Below, piece after piece: positions 12,174-45,581 of a DNA stretch of 64,000 nt. A program made the translations under genes and the position numbers. The stretch's first letter is position 1. Each line of letters begins with the position of its first letter. The stretch is from Escherichia phage ECCR664: sequence record OL631257.1; one strand, written 5' to 3'. Under the pieces are notes generated by a model, which saw only the letters and a list, made by a program, of their open reading frames with translations, was not told where the DNA came from and did no database searches.

Positions 12174-12722
12174 TTAACGAGCCCATTTGATAATTTCTGT
12201 AATCAAATTATTACGTTCGCTTGCATTAAATCCTATAACTTTGTTAGCACCATCATGATTAAGTAATTGATACGTTTGGATTTTGTTATGAATTGCAAAC
12301 TCTTCAAAATGTGAAATGACTGTATTAAAACCGAATGAAGACAAAGTAATAAGATCGTCTTCAAAACTTTCAGTCATTTCGTTACGTGTTAAAATAATTG
12401 TGAACACATCATGGTTTTGGCAAAGACGAATATAATCCTGTTCATAAACGTCAAGAACCGAGTCCGCATCTTGTCGAATACGTCCATAAACCCAGTTACT
12501 AATATATCCACGGTCTAACAGATAAATCTTAGTAGGGTCTAAATAATTCAACATCGTTTCGAAACAGCCAACTTCATTTCGAGACTTAACATCGAAACGT
12601 CCATCAACTGTTCGTTTAGGGAAATCAATCTTTACATATCTTTCACTAATTTCCATTATGTCATTAATGAAAGTTGTTTTACCAGCATTATCCGGTCCGT
12701 CTACTAAAATAATTTTAGCCAT
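12174..12722 (-). CDS. P-loop kinase, thymidylate/dNMP-kinase-like
   Basis: 182 aa; Walker A GPDNAGKTT; LLDRGYISNWVYG resembles the TMPK DRY..S..AYQ lid motif. Sits where T4 has beta-gt. Confidence 0.55.
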   Translation of the reverse strand: MAKIILVDGPDNAGKTTFINDIMEISERYVKIDFPKRTVDGRFDVKSRNEVGCFETMLNYLDPTKIYLLDRGYISNWVYGRIRQDADSVLDVYEQDYIRLCQNHDVFTIILTRNEMTESFEDDLITLSSFGFNTVISHFEEFAIHNKIQTYQLLNHDGANKVIGFNASERNNLITEIIKWAR

Positions 12723-12723
12723 T

Positions 12724-13623
12724 TTATTCCTCGATTACGACATCTTCGTATTTAGGTATATTATACGGTGAAGAAATTAAAGCATTAAAGTAGATGAACT
12801 CACCAAGACCTGGATGGAATACTTCTTCAGGATTTTCGAAATATTGAATCTTCGGACGTCCTTTAAGAATTTGATAGTACTCAGTTTTAGTTGGATTAAA
12901 AATTCGAATCAGCGCTTCTTCGGGATACTTATTTCTGTCGAAACTATTATTTGGATCAGTTATATAAAGCGGTTGACCTAATTGAATTGCGCATTCAACC
13001 ACTTGTTCAAAACGATAGCATGGGTCACTAATTCGAAATGGATGAAAAATACCATCTAGATGAATAGGAGCCAAATCACCTACAAGACGCTGCATGACGG
13101 AAGGACGTATAACTTTCTGCGTTACGATAATCTTATTACCATCTGCACCTGCGTTAACCAGCACTTCTTTTTGACGTTCATTCAACACAGTAGTTTGAAG
13201 TGAACGATTAACCGACAACATATCGGTTTTTAAGAATTCGTCAATATAAAAACGTGGTTTATTAGGGTCTGCAGTGATATTGAAATTGAATTCCACATCA
13301 AAAGCGCCGTCATATCCGGTGATATCTGTGATTAGAAAATCACAATCATAATAAGCAATTAATGAATCAACCACAAATTCATTTTCAGACCAGAAATATT
13401 TACGAGTGTTATACGCGTTATCTTTATACCATAATGGAACAAACTTAAATTCTGGGAAAAGACGTTCACATTCTTTAATATCGGATGCATTACGTGGATA
13501 TGTAATCACATCACCTGGATTAGCACGGTGCAAATGAAGTTGGAAGTTGCCATCCTTAAGGATAGCATACTGTCCAGTTTCATAAGACCGCATACTCAAG
13601 ATTGGTACGCGGAAAATAGCCAT
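12724..13623 (-). CDS. hypothetical protein; positional candidate for the hmC-DNA glycosyltransferase
   Basis: 299 aa; no similarity to T4 beta-gt as recalled; immediately downstream of gene 42 and coupled to the P-loop kinase (1-nt gap). Confidence 0.3.
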   Translation of the reverse strand: MAIFRVPILSMRSYETGQYAILKDGNFQLHLHRANPGDVITYPRNASDIKECERLFPEFKFVPLWYKDNAYNTRKYFWSENEFVVDSLIAYYDCDFLITDITGYDGAFDVEFNFNITADPNKPRFYIDEFLKTDMLSVNRSLQTTVLNERQKEVLVNAGADGNKIIVTQKVIRPSVMQRLVGDLAPIHLDGIFHPFRISDPCYRFEQVVECAIQLGQPLYITDPNNSFDRNKYPEEALIRIFNPTKTEYYQILKGRPKIQYFENPEEVFHPGLGEFIYFNALISSPYNIPKYEDVVIEE

Positions 13624-36454: not shown

Positions 36455-36592
36455 TCAATATTCTCTATAAAAGTTACGATGAGAACGTTTAGCTTTGCGA
36501 AGCTGACGTTTAGTAGGACGAACTGTAAATGGTTGCCCAGAGAAAAATTCGGATCGGTTTTAATAAGCAAATACCAATCGTGCTTGCCATTT
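36455..36592 (-). CDS. small protein with basic VRPTK tail (family member 3), apparent frameshift
   Basis: Not in ORF track; MASTIGICLLKPIRI ... FSGQPFTVRPTKRQLRKAKRSHRNFYREY. Confidence 0.3.
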
Positions 36593-36751
36593 TTAATAAA
36601 CGGTACAATAATTTAACTTGCATAATAATCTCTTCCCATCTCCATATCAATTAATTCATTTATTGAAGGTTCATCATAACATGTTTCTTCGTCGTTGTAA
36701 ACTGTTTCGACGTCTGGCTCGACAGTCTCCCATCGAGCAGAATACCACGGT

Positions 36752-37108
36752 TTAACCCCGGAGTTTATTGAGCTCTTCATAATCAATCCAGGATTCTAGC
36801 CCTGACGGCAGGTCACATTCAATGTTCCACAGAAGCTCTTCAATGGCTTGCAGGCGATTATATTCTTCAACGGTAATGGTAACCATTGGTGCAACCGGTT
36901 CTGCCTTTTTAACCATCATATCGTTCATCAGGACGTAAAGGTCATCACGAACGACAGTGTCGTTCCAACCCCATGATTTGGCTTCGTAAGCTAATGATGA
37001 AGGGAGCACATTTAAAACTTCAATAATAGTTGGAGCATCAGGACCAAGTTCATTGGCACAAACTTCGTATACATCTTGGAAATCTTTAAGATTTAATGAA
37101 TATGTCAT
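36752..37108 (-). CDS. hypothetical acidic protein (118 aa)
   Basis: ORF only. Confidence 0.3.
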   Translation of the reverse strand: MTYSLNLKDFQDVYEVCANELGPDAPTIIEVLNVLPSSLAYEAKSWGWNDTVVRDDLYVLMNDMMVKKAEPVAPMVTITVEEYNRLQAIEELLWNIECDLPSGLESWIDYEELNKLRG

Positions 37109-37367
37109 TTAAAATATTCTCGTAGTTGGTCAAAGCCACCGATCGAAGTTCCATCAGGAGCAAACACTTGAGGCATAGTCAATCCGACTTGTGATTCACG
37201 TCCAAGCTTAACAAGAAGCTCAGCAATTTTCTCATCATCGAACACACCTTTTCTGGCATAACATTAATGAATTCAAATGGCTGTTTCTTAACAGTCAGCA
37301 GTCGTTTCGCATTGTCGCAATAAATGCATTTATGAATAGTAGAGTCGTACCCGTACACTTTAAACAT
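37107..37367 (-). CDS. nrdC: thioredoxin/glutaredoxin NrdC; apparent frameshift
   Basis: MFKVYGYDS.IHKC.YCDNAKRLLTVKKQPFEFIN.MPEK matches T4 NrdC as recalled; frame is lost after about 45 aa. Confidence 0.75.
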
Positions 37368-37773
37368 TATTTTTCCTTTCATCGATTAAATATGCAACGC
37401 CAAATACAATACATGTAATAAAACCTGTGATACAGATAGAAACCAACAACACTGTACCAAAGAACCAAATCAAGTTATCTTTAGTAGTTTGTTTGATATC
37501 CATCTCACGAATTTCTATAGCTATCGTATCACCTTTATTCAGAAGCGTATAAAACGACGGTGATACATGCCTGTCAAAAACTCGACCTTGTTCATCTTTA
37601 TAGACTGCAATAAATTCTAATTTAGAATATTTTCCTGTAGATTGACCTGAAATTAATTCCACTACCTCCACAGGAATTACTTTAGTTTCCATGTAAGTAT
37701 TCTGGCTGTTCCAAATGAACGGAATAATGGCAAAAACTAAAGCTGCGATAAAACAACGAAGGCTATATCTCAT
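37360..37773 (-). CDS. membrane protein (137 aa)
   Basis: N-terminal and C-terminal hydrophobic segments. Confidence 0.35.
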   Translation of the reverse strand: MRYSLRCFIAALVFAIIPFIWNSQNTYMETKVIPVEVVELISGQSTGKYSKLEFIAVYKDEQGRVFDRHVSPSFYTLLNKGDTIAIEIREMDIKQTTKDNLIWFFGTVLLVSICITGFITCIVFGVAYLIDERKNNV

Positions 37774-38078
37774 TATAATGTTCTCTCAAATTTGTGGAAG
37801 CATTTACGGCATTTCAATTTCAAGTTATCAGTGGTCCAGTTAACCAGTTGGACTTGGATAGTTCCACATTCTGGACATGGATGTTTTGCTGCCGATTTGG
37901 CAGCATTTTCACGTCGTTCAACCATTTTCATTATTTCGTTCCATGCCGGAGGAACGAACTCTTCTTCACCGTGGATTTTATCTCGCTGAACAAATTCAAT
38001 CTTTGAACTATCGTCAATAAACTTAACCAAGCCATGATTAGTGCTCATATCAATATCCTCTAGAAGACGTAGTTTCAT
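37773..38078 (-). CDS. zinc-ribbon protein (101 aa)
   Basis: CPECG ... CRKC pair of Cys-x2-Cys. Confidence 0.35.
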   Translation of the reverse strand: MKLRLLEDIDMSTNHGLVKFIDDSSKIEFVQRDKIHGEEEFVPPAWNEIMKMVERRENAAKSAAKHPCPECGTIQVQLVNWTTDNLKLKCRKCFHKFERTL

Positions 38079-39027
38079 TATAACACCTCAATGGCATTTC
38101 GTAAACCATCCGCTTTCGCATTCAGAACTTTTAACGATTTAGTTTGTTCTGCAATCTGGGCTTCGACTTCTTTCAGACGAGATTTGAGGTACTCACGTTC
38201 TTCTCTTAAATTATCAACTTTTTCTACTTTAGGTTCTTTAATAGGCTTAAGTTTATACATATTAGGGTTCTTCAGTTTAATTTGAATTCGAGAACTGAAT
38301 AACATTGAACCGTTATCTTCAGTTTCGCTGAACATTTCAACAACATCCATAGTCTGTAACATCATACGAAGTTTATAAGACAGCGAACGAACGGTTTTGT
38401 TGTGCTTATTAATTTCTTCAGCTTTCATGGTACCGAGATTACGTGAGTAGTAATAAGGAACCTGGATATCAATTGATAATGATGCGTTACCATTACCGGT
38501 TGGTTTGAATACTGCAGTAACCCAATCTTTAACATGAACTTTATTTGTACGACCATCACCGCCAGTGAATAATTTACGAGAATGTTTAAAAAGCATATTC
38601 ACTTGGTTATTGAATTCACAAGCAAATTTATCAGCAAATTTAGTTTCAGGAATTGTAGATAACCAATCAGCTAAATGAGTCTTTTAACATCGTTAATAAT
38701 AGTAAATTCAACCAAATCGGTTTTAGATGTCACAGATTTAATAAAGCTCGGTTTCATAAAGTTTTTAATGTTATCGCGAGCTACAGTAGAAGATAATAAA
38801 CGAGAACGTTTGAACCATTGAAGCAGCGTCCCTAATGAATGAGAATATGCATTTTGAGTATCTTTACAGATATGATTTTCTTGGCCGGTATATGTACCAA
38901 AATCGCGAAGAATACCACTTACTACATCTCGGTGTGGAACATCAAATCCTAATGAACCAGAAGCACGTTGGGCATGAACATTAGCGATAAGACCTGCAAA
39001 ATAATCAATGTAATGTGAACGTGTCAT
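38078..39027 (-). CDS. hypothetical protein with C-terminal coiled coil; apparent frameshift
   Basis: ORFs 38671..39027 and 38078..38602 join through a shift near 38610; heptad-rich C-terminus. Confidence 0.3.
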
Positions 39028-39055
39028 AATATTTTCCTCTCGTTAAGATAGATTC

Positions 39056-39085
39056 ATTATACTCTAACCATCCTTGGTTGTAAAC
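39056..39085 (-). promoter_or_regulatory. early-type promoter
   Basis: Minus strand GTTTAC - spacer containing CCAAGGATGG - TATAAT. Confidence 0.45.
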
Positions 39086-39089
39086 TGAT

Positions 39090-40047
39090 TTATGATTTTA
39101 ATGCATTCATTGCGTTAAAAAGTTTAGAGTACTGCAACTGGAGATTGGTAACTACTTGTTGAGCATCACGAAGCTTAGCTTGTGCTTTGTCAAGTTCAAC
39201 AGACAGTTGGTCCATAGTGGCCTTGATTTGATTGTAATGGTAATCTTCGGCCGGAAGAAGGTCATTAGAAACATTTAGTTTTACTGCAGACAGTTTGCAC
39301 ACATTTGGCAAACCTTTAAACATTGATTTACCCGAAGTAGAATAAGCACTTAAGACTTCGGCCTGTTCAATTGGGGTCCCAGTAAGCGATGCTTCAAACA
39401 ATGCATTTTCCTTTTAAGATTTTGATAGTATTCAGAGTCTTTGTGCCACCATGGCGCAGGAACCTTTTACCAATAGATACACGAGCCTGGATAGCGATAT
39501 GGCCCTTATTCTTAATAGGGTTGATAATATTAAGCTCACGAGAATAAATCGCTTTAATCTGGTGGATATTATCACCTAAAACTTCCAACGCTTGGTGGAA
39601 TACACGAGCAACGTTATCATTCTTAGGTTTATACGTAAGAGTGAACTCATTCTCACTGATAACCATGATTTCTAACTTATCGTAAGTATATTTCAAATGT
39701 TTCATGTTAATTGCTTGAGGACGAATACGAGAAGCAATGGCCATCAGATTGTTAAGGTTATTTCGGAACTGTTTAGCGAAATATTGTCCTTCACCGCCGA
39801 TACAAAAATTACGAAGTTTCTGTTTGGCTAATAAACGGCTGAACTCACCATTTTTAATGAACTCTTTAACGGGTGTGTTAGTAACGCATTCAAATTGAGT
39901 AAACTTACGAGAAGTAATCCCATAATATGAACAGATTTCCTCAATCTCTTCAGGAGTCTTTACAGGCATACGGATAGGATTAGGTCCTGGAGTATATGCG
40001 TTCGAGGTAAATTCTTTGATAAGTTCTCTACGTGTAATAAAAGCCAT
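39090..40047 (-). CDS. hypothetical protein with C-terminal coiled coil; apparent frameshift
   Basis: ORFs 39394..40047 and 39090..39401 in tandem with an 8-nt overlap. Confidence 0.3.
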
Positions 40048-40073
40048 TTTATATTCCTCATGTTGAAAAATTT

Positions 40074-40103
40074 ATTATACTCCAACCATCCTTGGTTGTA
40101 CAT
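40074..40103 (-). promoter_or_regulatory. early-type promoter
   Basis: Minus strand ATGTAC - 18 nt containing CCAAGGATGG - TATAAT. Confidence 0.45.
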
Positions 40104-41098
40104 CATTCCTTAAGAAGTTTTACTACTTGAATAAGATTAGCTCGTTCTGTTTTATTTTTACCATTTAAGCCTGCTAATCGTGAGATTTCATCGTCAGTCT
40201 GTTGAATAGTTACATTAAGTTCGTTAATCAAAGCTTCAAAGTATTTGATTTGCTCAGCATGTTTTGATTCAAATTTCTGAACCGGAATAACGTCTTGGTT
40301 TAGTTCGTCAATAAGGTCTTTAAGAGCATCTTCTTGGTTGATATCGTATTCAACTTCTTTTATTTCTTCAACTAGCTCGTCTTTATATCTAACGTCTTTT
40401 AGTCCTGGTGCTGGTCCTGAAATCTCTTCTTTAAGAGTACAAACATACCCAATACGGTATCCAGTGTCGTCTCGCTTGATATCAACTTCGTCGATAAATC
40501 CACAATGTTTGAGACCAGAGCCGATTAGGTCAAAATATCCTTGACGACGTCCTTCAAACGTTACACGAACTACTAAGACAGTTTTGCCTGCAATCTTTTG
40601 AAGCTCACATTTATAAAAGTCAGTTGAACCTGAATAACGTGGATGAGTTTTAAAGTTCATCTGTCGATCTAGGCCCATTTGTAAACGTGCTGTTACGGCC
40701 ATAAAACGTGTTTGGTTCTCGTTAAGATGAGCAACAATCCATTTCAAAGGCATTTTACACTGTTCACGACCGAACAAATCAGTACGTCCTAGATTACGCA
40801 GGATGTTGTTAGAGTTAATCATCGACAGAACGTTAAGTTTATTCAGCGCGCTGAAGATTCCATCAGCCATTGATTTTCCGTAGCCTTTACACGCTTTAAT
40901 AAGCGCTCGCGGTAGATTAGTATAGATTTCAGACGGCATATGAAAATCAAATTTACTAACCAGTAATTGATGAACTTGGATAGCAATTCGTTCATAATTA
41001 AGCGCTCTGCGATCATTATGGTCTTTAAACCACACTTTAATCTGTGAAGCACATAAACCGTTAATTTCATGTTTTATCGCATCAGATGTAATGCTCAT
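40103..41098 (-). CDS. hypothetical protein (331 aa) with acidic coiled-coil C-terminus
   Basis: ORF; no catalytic motif recognised. Confidence 0.35.
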   Translation of the reverse strand: MSITSDAIKHEINGLCASQIKVWFKDHNDRRALNYERIAIQVHQLLVSKFDFHMPSEIYTNLPRALIKACKGYGKSMADGIFSALNKLNVLSMINSNNILRNLGRTDLFGREQCKMPLKWIVAHLNENQTRFMAVTARLQMGLDRQMNFKTHPRYSGSTDFYKCELQKIAGKTVLVVRVTFEGRRQGYFDLIGSGLKHCGFIDEVDIKRDDTGYRIGYVCTLKEEISGPAPGLKDVRYKDELVEEIKEVEYDINQEDALKDLIDELNQDVIPVQKFESKHAEQIKYFEALINELNVTIQQTDDEISRLAGLNGKNKTERANLIQVVKLLKE

Positions 41099-41160
41099 AA
41101 CTATTTCCTCAGATTGAATTGGAACTCAAAACCATTATAACCCGTCCTTGGGTAAAGCGT

Positions 41161-41373
41161 TTATGCGTGAACCGTCTTTAAACGTTCTTCAAATTTCCGA
41201 AGAGTACTAATACGTTCTGCTTTCTGTTTTGTATAGTTTGCAATACGTTCTGAAGTGAGAGCGTATCGTTCGTTTACTGTTTCTTTCATGAAGTCAGGGA
41301 TTTCACGAGAAGCTTTAATTTCATCAAACTTATCGAGTACTGCCTGGTCTTCAGCGATTAAATTTTCGTACAT
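41161..41373 (-). CDS. hypothetical coiled-coil protein (70 aa)
   Basis: ORF only. Confidence 0.3.
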   Translation of the reverse strand: MYENLIAEDQAVLDKFDEIKASREIPDFMKETVNERYALTSERIANYTKQKAERISTLRKFEERLKTVHA

Positions 41374-41434
41374 CTCGATATCTTTCTTAATGAAGTCGAT
41401 ATCTTCCTGTGTTACTTTGGATAAACGAGATGCT

Positions 41435-41686
41435 TTATCCTTTTGTACTGCTCGTTAGTTTCACGAGACCAGAATAATGTACGTTTTTGTTAGTGTTTTT
41501 GTAGACTTCCACAATTCCAACTGAATCGATGATAACAATCCAATTCCAGCGAGATTTGAAAATCTGACCTCCATCCACGGTAATCTCATTACCATAAGCA
41601 ACGTCATTAAAGAACTTGCTTTGTGCTTCAGATTTAAATTTACCGTCGTTATAATTTACCAGGTTGAAAATATCTTTAGCGTTCAT
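41435..41686 (-). CDS. hypothetical protein (83 aa)
   Basis: ORF downstream of an early-type promoter. Confidence 0.35.
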   Translation of the reverse strand: MNAKDIFNLVNYNDGKFKSEAQSKFFNDVAYGNEITVDGGQIFKSRWNWIVIIDSVGIVEVYKNTNKNVHYSGLVKLTSSTKG

Positions 41687-41712
41687 GTTTTACCTCCAGT
41701 AGTTGATAGGTC

Positions 41713-41742
41713 TATAATAACATAATCATAGACCTTGTAAAC
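41713..41742 (-). promoter_or_regulatory. T4 early-type promoter
   Basis: Minus strand GTTTAC - 17 nt - TATTAT with the palindrome AGGTCTAT/ATAGACCT. Confidence 0.5.
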
Positions 41743-41744
41743 AA

Positions 41745-42056
41745 CTAAAAGAAACTTTTTCGGTATTTTTCCACTGAACCAAACCGACTTCGGGATTTTT
41801 GTAATTTTTCAGATTTAAGTTTCTCTTCCTGTTCTTTCTTATATACACCCTTGTCGTACTGGAGCATCTCTATGGCATTCTTTTGCAAACGATCTAAGGT
41901 AATTAAGGCTTTAGTTTTTCCTTTCAAGGAAGAGTCCTGGCGAACCTCCTCGCTATATTGCATTGTAGAACTAACCATACGATGAGCATAGAGTTCGACT
42001 GCTGCTTTGATTTTTGCATAAAATCCATAACATATCCTCTTTGATTTGTACATCAT
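41745..42056 (-). CDS. hypothetical basic protein (103 aa)
   Basis: ORF only. Confidence 0.3.
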   Translation of the reverse strand: MMYKSKRICYGFYAKIKAAVELYAHRMVSSTMQYSEEVRQDSSLKGKTKALITLDRLQKNAIEMLQYDKGVYKKEQEEKLKSEKLQKSRSRFGSVEKYRKSFF

Positions 42057-42166
42057 TATTTTTAAATATTTCTATGCCCTCAGTAGGTTCCTGGTGTCCT
42101 TCTTTGAGGTAAGCCATATGATTATTCATCTTTATGGCTTTTGTTACCTCAGAACTTCCTATAAGC

Positions 42167-43145
42167 TTATTTCAGTAAAGTTACTTCGGAGATTTCCTCC
42201 CAACCATCTTTATCAGTTGAAATAAAATCTGCTACATAAAGAGCCGTACGTAATGATACATTGCGAAGACGAGATACGTTAGCCTTCATCCAGGACAATG
42301 CTTTGTACGTTTCAGCATCAGTCAGACCACGTTTCTGCATCATGTCAGTAGATAATATTACATCTTCAACTCGAACCATAATCTCTTCATTAGAGTGTAC
42401 TCCAAGGTCGAGATACACTGAACGAGATACTAAAGCTTGAAGGTGTGGAGCAAGTTTCGAACCACGTTCTAACTCTTTATCGATATCAACGTTTGTAATG
42501 AAAACGATAGTACCTTCAAACTCAAATTCTTTATCAATACCCTTATCATCAAGATAAGATGACGCAGTGCTCCAACAAACTTTGCGTTTATCTCCGGTAT
42601 CTAATGCTGCTTTAAGAAGGTTCAAGATATCCATATCAGAGAATACATCAACATCGTCGATTAAGAGAACGCTGTCTGCATCACGGTTGAGCCAAAGTTG
42701 TTCGTAAAGGCCAATACCAGAGATTTTACCATTAATGCTTTTGTATTTGATGAAGCCATTATCATTAGCACTATTAAGTGCTTTATCCAGAGAATACGTC
42801 TTACCAATACCGGCTGCACCTGAAATAATGAGTGAACGAATTTTGCCATCGATAATGCCATTCGTCATCATGTTCATTACTTTAAAGCGTTTGTTGATGC
42901 GAGTTTTCATATCTTCAGTGCTTTCAACAACTGCAACTGGTGATGTCTCAACTCCTTCCATTACGATGTCTGATTTGAAGACCCATACTCCACGTTCAGA
43001 ACCATCAATCATAACGAAAATTTTACCATCACCTAAGTGGGAACATTCAGGATTAAGCTTTGCTGGGAACCAGGTCTTTGTGGCGACATAAGAACCAGAG
43101 ATTTCGTTATTACGATAGATACCTTTTGATTTGAACGTTGAACAT
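42167..43145 (-). CDS. AAA+/P-loop ATPase; apparent frameshift near the N-terminus
   Basis: ORF 42167..43012 with Walker A GAAGIGKTY and Walker B VLLIDDVD; N-terminal extension from ATG 43145 in another frame. Confidence 0.55.
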
Positions 43146-43180
43146 TTTATTCTCCAATTTACTCATTTCGTTTCGATAGG

Positions 43181-43212
43181 TCTATAATAACATATCCTAA
43201 AAGCATGTACAC
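43181..43212 (-). promoter_or_regulatory. promoter with MotA-box-like element (possible middle promoter)
   Basis: Minus strand GTGTAC-ATGCTTTTA ... TATTAT; ATGCTTTTA resembles the T4 MotA box placed about 12 nt before the -10. Confidence 0.4.
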
Positions 43213-43230
43213 TACTTTTTAAAAATATTT

Positions 43231-43257
43231 TAACCCCTAAAGGGACCCGAAGGTCCC
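43231..43257 (-). terminator. rho-independent terminator
   Basis: Hairpin GGGACC-CGAA-GGTCCC at 43242..43257 followed on the minus strand by UUUAGGGGUU; near-identical element at 61647..61671. Confidence 0.55.
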
Positions 43258-43262
43258 CACAT

Positions 43263-43544
43263 TTACTTATCGCACTTAGCAACATAATTAGGCATATCAC
43301 AGAATACGGAGCGAGTAACTACTCGACCCTTTGACCATGCTTCAGTTGCTTGTCCGGCAGTGCTATTAATATAGCTTGATTTGATATTCTCAATACCCTG
43401 AGAATGTGATGCATTTACCGAACCGTTGGAAGGCCCAGAAGACTGGTTACCACCAGCTCCTGCACTACCGCTGGCTGCACCCGTGGTAGCACCAACAGAG
43501 AACGCCATCATTACTGCGAATAAACCAATTACTAATTTTTTCAT
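43263..43544 (-). CDS. secreted Gly/Ser-rich small protein
   Basis: 93 aa; signal peptide MKKLVIGLFAVMMAFSVGA; low-complexity GAASGSAGAGGNQSSGPSNGS; late promoter upstream. Confidence 0.4.
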   Translation of the reverse strand: MKKLVIGLFAVMMAFSVGATTGAASGSAGAGGNQSSGPSNGSVNASHSQGIENIKSSYINSTAGQATEAWSKGRVVTRSVFCDMPNYVAKCDK

Positions 43545-43572
43545 ATTTACCTCAAGTGAATGGTTATTTATC

Positions 43573-43580
43573 TATTTATA
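43573..43580 (-). promoter_or_regulatory. T4-type late promoter (TATAAATA)
   Basis: Plus tatttata about 29 nt upstream of the ATG at 43544. Confidence 0.5.
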
Positions 43581-43639
43581 GTAAGAATTATGATTTTCGA
43601 GATAGACTTGCTCAAGGAAATCATCCCAGAAACTCATAT

Positions 43640-44560
43640 CTACTTTTGTTGCATACCGTTCTTAGCGGCTTGTTCTGATGCTTGTTCAACTTGGTCAACG
43701 ATATCTTCTAGGAATTCTTGTACAGTTTTAAACGTATGTTTACCAAGCTTAACATCAAGAATAAATGGAGCATCCTGAAGCGGGTAAACCAGGTCACCGG
43801 TTTTGTAAATTTCCAATAATTGAAGTCCACCACGACATGCATGACTCAATGCTTTCCAGTCAATACCTTCGTTGGCTTCCGCCTTACGAGCACGTTCACC
43901 ATAGTTCTCTTCCAGTTTAACCAGGATGGCATTGAACTCTTTATTGGTTAACGTGTCTTGGAATTTACGGTCTAATAGATTATAGAATGTTTGCTTACCT
44001 GTTTTCTCGTTTTCGGTTTCAACCCATGAAGCAAATTCACCTACAGGCAGAACATTCTTCATATGTGATAAACGAATTACCGCACCATTATCAAAGTATT
44101 GTCCCCATTCATTAGAACGTTTAAGGGCTTGACGAAGAACAGCCAGTCGAGAACCCTTGACACCATATTTAGAAGCTTGCTTACGGACATACCCTAAATA
44201 AGATTTCATGTTAGTGGTATAGAAACGAGACCTGTTATCTTGAATATACTTCCATACATCAGGCAAATCAGATTTAACTACTAGACTTGGTGGGGTGTGA
44301 AGCATATCTAATGCGACGGTTTCACCATCTGCAGCTAGTTTAAAGAAATATTTGAGACTATACAACTCGTGGTCCACGTCGTCTTTTGTGTTCTTAGAAG
44401 CAGTGTTGTTAGTGTTCTTGCTCATGTGTTCTTTAACGTTACCGGTCAAGATATCACGAGCATGAGGGACATAAATTTCTTTAAAATCGACGTCAGATTC
44501 AGGAGTAGACGTTCCATAAAGGTGGCTACCAAAGTAGCCTTTCATAATTGTTTTCATCAT
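43640..44560 (-). CDS. Pol-beta-superfamily nucleotidyltransferase (ANT/MNT-like N-terminal domain plus helical C-terminal domain)
   Basis: 306 aa; KGYFGSHLYGTSTPESDVDFKEIYVP fits the G-S-x(9-13)-D-x-D signature; start overlaps the stop of the upstream membrane protein (ATGA). Confidence 0.55.
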   Translation of the reverse strand: MMKTIMKGYFGSHLYGTSTPESDVDFKEIYVPHARDILTGNVKEHMSKNTNNTASKNTKDDVDHELYSLKYFFKLAADGETVALDMLHTPPSLVVKSDLPDVWKYIQDNRSRFYTTNMKSYLGYVRKQASKYGVKGSRLAVLRQALKRSNEWGQYFDNGAVIRLSHMKNVLPVGEFASWVETENEKTGKQTFYNLLDRKFQDTLTNKEFNAILVKLEENYGERARKAEANEGIDWKALSHACRGGLQLLEIYKTGDLVYPLQDAPFILDVKLGKHTFKTVQEFLEDIVDQVEQASEQAAKNGMQQK

Positions 44561-45030
44561 TTAGCCTTATATTCAAGAGTAGGACAGACTTTTTCTTTAC
44601 GAGCTTTAAGGTATTCACCTATTAATGATTTCTTACGTTCAATAGGCTCAAGTCCATTTTTAATTCGTTCTTGGTTTTGTGCAATGAGCTCAATTTCTTT
44701 ATAATATTTTCTGTCGTTATATTTGTCTAATAACCAAGATGGACCAATTACCGCCCCGACAGCAATAAGAACCATTACTGATATTGTTAAAATGCCTATA
44801 CCAATTGAAGCAGGAACTAATGTCCATAAACTACTAAAGACAAAGAATTTAGTTAAAATTTCTTGGCCAATGATTGCGGCACCTGCTAAAGTTGCAAATC
44901 CAACAATTGAAACAGCCAATACCGGAATAAACGTTTTCCAAAAATAAGCACATAATGTTTTCGGACGATTCCACGTACTATTGAACGTGGCATAAATTTT
45001 AAAGTGCCAAGAGTTTTCATTGATAATCAT
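44557..45030 (-). CDS. membrane protein, translationally coupled to the nucleotidyltransferase
   Basis: 157 aa; three predicted TM segments (FIPVLAVSIVGFATLAGAAIIG, FVFSSLWTLVPASIGIGILTISVMVLIAVGAVIG). Confidence 0.45.
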   Translation of the reverse strand: MIINENSWHFKIYATFNSTWNRPKTLCAYFWKTFIPVLAVSIVGFATLAGAAIIGQEILTKFFVFSSLWTLVPASIGIGILTISVMVLIAVGAVIGPSWLLDKYNDRKYYKEIELIAQNQERIKNGLEPIERKKSLIGEYLKARKEKVCPTLEYKAK

Positions 45031-45182
45031 AATAATTCCTTATTTCAAAGTCGGGATAATAGAATCGAGATAAGCTTTAAGAGCAACTGCTTCATCTTTG
45101 TCTAATGTAATGATATGTTGACGAAGGTCATCAATTTGGCGAATAACTACAACATCACCGTCTTCATAAGAAGGATTAACGC

Positions 45183-45581
45183 TCAGGACTGTTGTATAGT
45201 CAGGGTTGTCCTGATTTGTAATAAAAGCATTACGACATTTAGCCCATTGAAGTTTGGCCTTTTGGCTGTTTCAGATTCCATGAATTCTTTCACTTTAGCG
45301 ACGAATGTTTTCCAATTATTAATAGAAAAACATTCGTCTTCTGTTTCGATATTAACCCCACTATAAAGTCCGTGATAAAAACGAACTTGAAGGTCTTCAT
45401 CAATGTTAATTACAGATGCATGGCCTGGTGGATTGAGTTTCAAAATCTTGTCCAGTTCCATAGGAAGAATAGTAACAGCATCATCTTCTTGCGTCAGAAC
45501 GTAAGCATAACCGCGTTTTTCAATACATAAATCACCGAACAACTCTGTTGTTTCAATTACAGTTTTCATATTATTCACCAA
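45183..45581 (-). CDS. hypothetical protein (132 aa)
   Basis: ORF only. Confidence 0.3.
   Translation of the reverse strand: MVNNMKTVIETTELFGDLCIEKRGYAYVLTQEDDAVTILPMELDKILKLNPPGHASVINIDEDLQVRFYHGLYSGVNIETEDECFSINNWKTFVAKVKEFMESETAKRPNFNGLNVVMLLLQIRTTLTIQQS

Follow-up and report, generated by a model that had tools for sequence, protein, structure and literature searches.

The nrdC–mobD block of Escherichia phage ECCR664: orthologues of T4 nrdC.x genes, an apparent superfamily of paralogues and a likely counter-defence role

Introduction

The subject of this report is a compact block of six genes at positions 38078–43145 of a 64,000-nucleotide (nt) stretch of Escherichia phage ECCR664 (sequence record OL631257.1), the whole of which is referred to here as the window. 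Its closest described counterparts are the nrdC.x genes of phages T4 and RB69. A T4 clone that has lost a genome segment cannot infect ECOR17 dsr1 cells, and expression of nrdC.5 restores infection (Srikant et al. 2022, PMC9391042); our literature search found no later paper giving the mechanism by which NrdC.5 acts against Dsr1. In a genome-reduction study T4 was viable without nrdC.1–6 and, separately, without nrdC.11–mobD.3 (PMC9825161), and nrdC.10 was noted in 2006 as a weak AAA match (PMC1524935). DSAD1, the anti-DSR2 protein of SPbeta-like Bacillus phages, is taken here as a functional analogue only, a neutraliser of a sirtuin NADase from a different phage lineage. For accessory open reading frames (ORFs) in the hyperplastic regions of T4-like phages, shuffling by promoter–stem-loop (PeSL) cassettes has been described (Arbiol 2010, PMC2839356; Comeau 2014, PMC4122927), and the terminator activity of these cassettes, as well as recombination between copies, is experimental in RB49/phi1 (PMC2839356).

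The order, strand and sizes of nrdC.3, nrdC.5, nrdC.6, nrdC.8, nrdC.9 and nrdC.10 in RB69 equal those of the present block, from which they differ by the homopolymer deletion errors of the present copy. T4 differs more: its nrdC.4 has no counterpart in the window, the window's nrdC.7 homologue (37360–37773) adjoins nrdC and is thus relocated relative to T4, and T4 NrdC.5 and NrdC.6 share no more than 25–29% identity with the window proteins. Our overall reading, which we hold with good confidence, is that the block is the nrdC–mobD hyperplastic region of a Mosigvirus (RB69-type) phage, that the breaks in its ORFs come from homopolymer under-calling, and that its paralogous proteins of ~320 amino acids (aa) are dispensable and likely inhibitors or decoys of host defence. 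The block is otherwise an ordinary and already known one, found at 95–99% identity in over 140 deposited phage genomes, and what the analysis adds to existing annotation is an apparent paralogous superfamily and a probable PeSL-like cassette duplication only.

Results and Discussion

Identity of the block

When window positions 37000–44700 were searched by megablast, 728 phage records were matched, and the 144 that cover at least 80% of the query are all T4-like Straboviridae. Because Mosigvirus genomes match best (p000y at 98.2%; O157 typing phages, ST0 and mar005P1 at ~96–97%), we assign the window to an RB69-type phage (Mosigvirus). The block shares 95–96% DNA identity with RB69, and its products are 92–99% identical to the RB69 nrdC.x proteins. 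Every gene within and around the block lies on the minus strand. With the homopolymer deletions treated below filled in, its genes, here labelled A to F, read as follows, each with its BLASTP comparison to T4.

38078–39027, minus strand: A, nrdC.3 orthologue, 316 aa after correction at 38681; 94% identical to RB69 NrdC.3; phrog_1435; 57% identical to T4 NrdC.3 over the full length (E 3e-120)
39090–40047, minus strand: B, nrdC.5 orthologue, 319 aa after correction at 39411 and 39464; RB69 orthologue named NrdC.5; 25% identical to T4 NrdC.5 over 304 aa (E 5e-9)
40103–41098, minus strand: C, nrdC.6 orthologue, 331 aa, intact as deposited; 96% identical to RB69 NrdC.6; phrog_2257; 29% identical to T4 NrdC.6 (E 8e-18)
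41161–41686, minus strand: D, nrdC.8 orthologue, 175 aa after correction at 41440 and 41483; phrog_2274; 83% identical to T4 NrdC.8 (E 1e-108)
41745–42028, minus strand: E, nrdC.9 orthologue, 95 aa after correction at 41755, 41765, 41795 and 42010; 35% identical to T4 NrdC.9 (E 4e-7)
42167–43145, minus strand: F, nrdC.10 orthologue, predicted AAA+ ATPase, 326 aa after correction of a 2-nt deletion at 43123; 77.5% identical to T4 NrdC.10 (E 0)

All six corrected products are reciprocal best hits of their T4 counterparts (BLASTP, E 5e-9 to 0), and gene order and strand are collinear with T4 and RB69, between nrdC/nrdC.2 and nrdC.11; 23 further loci were compared. The curated RB69 record, in which the order is nrdC, nrdC.7, nrdC.2, nrdC.3, nrdC.5, nrdC.6, nrdC.8, nrdC.9, nrdC.10, ORF102c and nrdC.11, already carries nrdC.x names for the counterparts of A–F. 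At both ends the block is bounded precisely by a gene: at 38078 lies the stop of the nrdC.3 homologue, an ORF whose end overlaps the beginning of nrdC.2, and the ATG of the nrdC.10 homologue has its first base at 43145, with a GGAG Shine-Dalgarno sequence 8 nt upstream.

An earlier note on the window, made from the sequence alone, had delimited this minus-strand block correctly, and its picture of an early accessory block of poorly characterised proteins with an AAA+ ATPase is a fair one. It had also presented the block as uncharacterised, a view that it would have given up if all of the genes proved to be orthologues of conserved T4 nrdC.x genes; with six collinear reciprocal best hits, this is what was found. 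Nor does the block border on the rI region, as had been supposed, since nrdC.11, a membrane protein, mobD.1 and other genes lie between.

Domain searches place the proteins in families without giving them functions. By Pfam, B is a DUF7235 protein (414.1 bits, cut-off 30, aligned from profile position 1 to 307 of 307), as is T4 NrdC.5 over its full length (420.6 bits), and E matches DUF7203 (80.9 bits, cut-off 27); A, C and D have no Pfam match, and a PDB sequence search with D gave coiled-coil noise only. Every block protein falls in a PHROGs family of unknown function. The statement that no motif could be assigned therefore stands for function, as searched in Pfam, NCBIfam and PADLOC, and fails for the family membership of B and E. 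Several GenBank records label such proteins 'thioredoxin'; no thioredoxin or glutaredoxin Pfam hit was obtained for any of A–F, so that the label is name propagation from 'nrdC.x'. Other labels in deposited T4-like genomes likewise lack domain support, the AAA+ protein being variously called 'clamp loader', 'RarA' and 'XRE-type DNA-binding protein'.

An apparent superfamily of paralogues

The three 300-aa-class proteins described earlier do exist once corrected (316, 319 and 331 aa); as deposited, only the one at 40103–41098 is intact, the frameshifts in the others having been overlooked. Coiled-coil C-termini had been attributed to all three. Heptad periodicity is significant in A and B (shuffle p<0.005) and borderline in C (p≈0.06), and in an AlphaFold2 (AF2) model of B, computed from 13 sequences (close Mosigvirus relatives and one remote subfamily), the terminal 52 residues (267–318) are predicted with confidence as a helix.

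Nineteen further loci, anchored on NrdC.10, were drawn from IMG/VR. In every case, two to four ORFs of ~260–390 aa occupy the slot between nrdC.9 and nrdC.2. The BLAST families of these ORFs vary by genus, and clustering of the slot ORFs gave seven families, one of which unites A with T4 NrdC.3 and NrdC.4. By eye, all families but one share a motif 'SR.LS...A..L.NFG', a helix 'F..N...IL..[AG]SRL..G..RQ..FK', a beta-rich segment that leads to another helix, with the end 'MD[VF][VI]', and a terminal helix ending 'L..A[ILM]..L'. As read from these alignments, the proteins have in common a variable N-terminus followed by a conserved alpha/beta core, a linker and a predicted C-terminal coiled coil of ~50 residues.

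The relationship was tested by leave-one-family-out hhalign, with the last 70 residues trimmed because coiled-coil composition would otherwise be scored. The probability was 94.8% for the nrdC.3/.4/A family (P=5e-8), 87.9% for nrdC.6/C (P=3e-6), 65.6% for nrdC.5/B (P=6e-5), 70.8% for cluster 4 (P=4e-5) and 96.0% for cluster 5 (P=4e-9), with P ranging over the families from 5.8e-5 to 3.8e-9; a merged profile matched the nrdC.6/C family at 91.7% (P=8e-7 over 90 columns). In the controls, reversed alignments gave P of 0.27–0.77, the probability in 30 block-shuffles never rose above 0.9%, and P was 0.58 for an unrelated family of ~260 aa from the same slot. Independently of hhalign, the match of two subfamilies to Pfam DUF7235 is confined to the terminal coiled coil. 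We thus conclude that A, B and C appear to be paralogues in one fast-diverging superfamily with T4 NrdC.3, NrdC.4, NrdC.5 and NrdC.6. Their identity to T4 (57% for A, 25% for B and 29% for C) compares with 83% and 77.5% for their neighbours D and F.

The family of C is tiny and phage-restricted, an exhaustive phmmer search of 1.84 billion proteins having returned six cluster representatives, all of the nrdC.6 type. The last residues of T4 NrdC.6 (275 aa), '…EELIFLFNNMMMKFSDYLD', form an unrelated tail, and its relatives P0188, P0190, P0191 and P0192 run into a coiled coil, '…EELNISIQQYDDEIFRLSGLSSKAKSEREKLIKIVDLLKS'; the T4 reference nrdC.6 (L001) looks frameshifted or shortened at its 3' end. 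In the equivalent slot of Acinetobacter phage ZZ1 (L028), a 386-aa ORF at 12221–13381 has a coiled-coil end with the same terminal pattern, '…DIQALESALSILR', which suggests that T4-like phages of Acinetobacter also have members of the paralogue family.

Possible role in counter-defence

B resembles T4 NrdC.5 in being a full-length DUF7235 protein of the same length class, in a syntenic position and with a C-terminal coiled coil; it differs from it in sequence (25% identity), and anti-Dsr1 activity is known for the T4 protein only, against Dsr1 of E. coli ECOR17. We infer a counter-defence role for B, direct binding and oligomerisation, and likewise whatever roles are proposed here for A, C, D, E and F. 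The A, B and C proteins would act as oligomers, inhibiting host anti-phage systems or serving them as decoys; B would be a candidate neutraliser of Dsr1-type SIR2 NADase defence, and A and C would have targets other than that of B. Most likely, A–C are dispensable for laboratory growth and act as such inhibitors or decoys, and the genes of the block as a whole are most likely early and dispensable, with a part in host range or counter-defence.

Several observations weigh against this. The weakest link in the superfamily is the B family itself, at 65.6%, and the AF2 model of B has a mean predicted local distance difference test score (pLDDT) of 40.9 and is confident nowhere but in the terminal helix, which leaves a common fold of A, B and C without structural support. 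At 25% identity to T4 NrdC.5, the specificity of B for Dsr1 may differ or be absent, and T4 NrdC.5 is the only superfamily member with a known experimental phenotype. PADLOC and NCBIfam gave no functional assignment for A–F, and PADLOC and other libraries include no anti-defence models that might bear out the role. Finally, the strong conservation of NrdC.8 and NrdC.10 fits an arms race poorly, and these two may instead serve a housekeeping-like phage function.

The paralogues could alternatively be general modulators of host takeover or metabolism (transcription, the nucleoid or nucleotide metabolism), the effect of NrdC.5 on Dsr1 being indirect. Such a role would suit early genes that lie beside nrd genes, many T4 early ORFs alter host physiology, and the mechanism of NrdC.5 against Dsr1 is unpublished. 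However, no enzymatic or DNA-binding motifs were found in the paralogues with Pfam and NCBIfam, and their extreme divergence, together with presence/absence variation among close genera, suits arms-race targets better than conserved host machinery. The 'thioredoxin' labels, being propagated names without domain support, do not speak for a metabolic role either, and we regard general modulation as unlikely. A bolder form of the counter-defence reading is that NrdC.3, NrdC.4, NrdC.5, NrdC.6 and the unassigned 260–390-aa ORFs that other T4-like genera have in the slot make up one diversifying family of coiled-coil-tailed counter-defence proteins spread as PeSL cassettes, each member directed against a different immune system and the Mosigvirus NrdC.5 tuned to another Dsr1 allele than that of T4, and this we put forward tentatively, with more doubt than conviction. 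As apparent paralogues of T4 NrdC.5, A, B and C would make a short, cheap list of candidate anti-defence genes for T-even and RB69-type therapeutic phages.

The AAA+ protein NrdC.10

That the block encodes an AAA+ ATPase, as the earlier note had recognised, was borne out. NrdC.10 has 520 homologues at E≤1e-3, and those named, which reach down to 53% identity, come from T4-like phages of Escherichia, Enterobacter, Serratia, Salmonella, Yersinia, Erwinia, Acinetobacter, Aeromonas and Vibrio. Among 30 homologues reaching down to 53% identity, the Walker A (G110-AAGIGKT-117) and Walker B (L161-LIDD-165) motifs are invariant, as are N219, which follows a strand at 213–218, and R242 (within 'SRS'), which precedes a strand at 244–247, these being the positions expected of sensor 1 and an arginine finger; several C-terminal arginines are invariant as well. 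In the AF2 model built from 30 sequences (pLDDT 82.3), residues 1–64 form a beta-domain, which is followed by a linker and an alpha/beta core; the core has additional strands after Walker B and before sensor 1, and a helical lid is also present. The model thus has the alpha-beta-alpha core plus helical lid of AAA+ proteins, and on this model NrdC.10 is a genuine AAA+ fold.

No curated Pfam AAA model exceeded its gathering score for F, the best being AAA_22 at 22.2 bits against a cut-off of 27; the NrdC.10 family is too divergent for sequence models. A PDB sequence search returned weak P-loop similarity to HerA and Cdc6 only (E at least 0.15). AAA+ proteins with a pre-sensor-1 beta-hairpin (the MoxR proteins NorQ and CbbQ, and NtrC-type enhancer-binding proteins) are among the closest known systems, and the predicted structure probably places NrdC.10 in the pre-sensor-1-hairpin superclade, in no specific clade; it did not qualify as MoxR-type, a class recognised here by the closest structural clade together with a partner VWA-domain protein. 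In BFVD, relatives at 24–36% identity occur in non-T4 phages, for example Roseobacter phage RDJL Phi 1. NrdC.10 would be a probable ring former, whose small N-terminal beta domain could bind a substrate or an adaptor.

Another possibility is that NrdC.10 and the coiled-coil paralogues form one machine, in which the C-terminal helix docks variable adaptors on the motor and captured host targets are remodelled or unfolded. The genes occur together in T4, Mosigvirus, Karamvirus-like and Acinetobacter phage loci, the paralogues have in common the C-terminal helix ending 'L..A[ILM]..L', and the modelled N-terminal beta domain could bind a partner. In Aeromonas phage B614, however, NrdC.10 lies in another neighbourhood, without an adjoining RlaP gene (nrdC.11) and flanked by no ORF of ~300 aa, these flanking ORFs not having been compared with the paralogue family, and T4 nrdC.5 on a plasmid was by itself sufficient to rescue the deletion phage on Dsr1, though that phage may retain nrdC.10. 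We consider a joint machine improbable, somewhat more so than general modulation.

NrdC.10 lies near nrdC.11 in T4, RB69 and Acinetobacter phage ZZ1, with at most one small ORF between them. In Aeromonas phage B614 the two are apart, and for this reason the idea that NrdC.10 and NrdC.11 are an obligatory pair was rejected.

Interrupted reading frames

As deposited, nrdC.6 is the sole intact ORF of the six, and the other five are broken by deletions of 1–2 nt in T5/T6 runs: A is read as fragments of 174 and 118 aa, B of 103 and 217 aa and D of 70 and 83 aa, and the ATPase F is cut to 281 aa. The breaks were located by aligning the window with p000y, O157 typing phage 3 and S143_2. One base of a T5/T6 run is missing relative to all relatives at each of nine positions (38681, 39411, 39464, 41440, 41483, 41755, 41765, 41795 and 42010), and at 43123, in the nrdC.10 homologue, the window is two bases short. 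Filling these gaps gives ORFs of 316, 319, 331, 175, 95 and 326 aa for A–F, the sizes annotated in the relatives.

The defect extends far beyond the block. Compared with p000y over 64 kb, the window has 161 indels of 1–2 nt, of which 127 are deletions in the window and 34 insertions, and 108 of the 161 lie in homopolymers of at least 4 bases. Essential genes are also affected, namely those for the gp41 helicase (~10262, ~10460) and the gp62 clamp loader (~21937, ~22039), and nrdC itself (glutaredoxin; 37105–37382) is split into 67 and 46 aa by an absent T at 37248, the corrected product being of 92 aa as in relatives. Since these homopolymer lesions are window-wide and spare not even essential genes, the frameshifts are a sequencing artefact and not gene decay. 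The idea that they are genuine, most of the accessory genes being pseudogenes of a decaying block, agrees with the interruption of five of six genes in the deposited sequence and with the dispensability of T4 nrdC.1–6, but it is very improbable, and pseudogenisation was rejected, given that single-base loss in T/A runs of at least 4 recurs 108 times window-wide and strikes gp41 and gp62, that deletions so outnumber insertions, and that relatives at 95–98% identity all have intact ORFs. Because the assembly carries systematic homopolymer errors, any ORF-based reading of the whole window is fragmented and unreliable.

Promoters, cassettes and terminators

The earlier note had given each gene its own early-type promoter. 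Good T4-early-type −35/−10 pairs precede A, B, D and F, each lying in a short gap between genes. Before C there is a degenerate copy, and E has no promoter of its own in the sequence upstream. The promoter-like and terminator-like sites are as follows.

39056–39084, minus strand: early promoter of A, GTTTACA-N17-TATAAT, 11/12 consensus matches, with a 5-bp hairpin AACCA-AGGA-TGGTT in the spacer
40074–40102, minus strand: early promoter of B, TGTACA-N17-TATAAT, its hairpin identical to that in the promoter of A
41134–41158, minus strand: degenerate copy of the A/B cassette before C, GCTTTAC-CCAAGGACGGGT-TATAAT, with a short spacer and a MotA-box-like GCTTTA
41714–41741, minus strand: early promoter of D, extended −10 consensus ATGTTATTATAGACCTATC
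43184–43211, minus strand: early promoter of F, extended −10 consensus ATGTTATTATAGACCTATC, as in the promoter of D
43242–43257, minus strand: terminator-like GC-rich hairpin GGGACC-TTCG-GGTCCC after the upstream 93-aa gene, with a weak T tract; upstream border of the block

The total number of promoter-like sites (25 found against 28.8 expected) does not exceed chance, so that it is their placement and not their number that is informative. These motifs suggest that the block is transcribed early; for C, the short spacer and the MotA-box likeness make a middle-type promoter possible. The element ATGTTATTATAGACCTATC occurs nine times in the window at up to 3 mismatches, always on the minus strand and between 8623 and 57621, against 0.03 occurrences expected, and could serve to map the early transcription units of the present phage.

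The promoter cassettes of A and B are identical at 26 of 27 nt (copy at 40074–40100; 0 expected by chance). Compensatory variants of the N5-AGGA-N5' stem occur as AGCCA/TGGCT and CCACA/TGTGG before T4 nrdC.3 and nrdC.4, as ATCCA/TGGAT in another of the compared loci (L013), and as CACCA/TGGTG at window position ~61255. As in PeSL, repeated early-promoter units with a small stem-loop and the T4/PST-type consensus TTTACW-N17-TAYWAT stand beside accessory ORFs, and the A and B cassettes combine all of these features; here, the 5-bp stem with its AGGA loop sits inside the promoter spacer. The homologous cassettes before A, B and C suggest that the paralogues were duplicated as promoter-plus-gene units, and such cassettes may mark the units of duplication or shuffling.

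Terminators had been placed at both ends of the block. The upstream hairpin at 43242–43257 agrees with this; at the downstream end, where nrdC.3 overlaps the start of nrdC.2, there is no terminator. An Rfam search over 36500–45500 gave no hits.

Neighbouring genes

Between nrdC.10 and nrdC.11, a gene at 43263–43544 encodes a protein of 93 aa that carries a signal peptide and is in one region rich in Gly and Ser (phrog_2243; weak YbgS-like match). RB69 has ORF102c in the corresponding position, which is a positional match only, and T4 has no homologue in the region; relative to p000y and O157 typing phage 3, the gene carries a 15-nt in-frame insertion at 43460. The nrdC.11 orthologue at 43572–44560, a nucleotidyltransferase of the RlaP family ('RNA repair pathway'), is 78% identical to that of T4, and its deposited ORF is cut by a deletion at 43643. 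In S143_2 (L002), a 278-bp insertion with an extra 89-aa ORF lies between the nrdC.10 promoter and the upstream gene (window position 43190), and its junction coincides with the −10 element of that early promoter, which is what cassette-type indels would lead one to expect.

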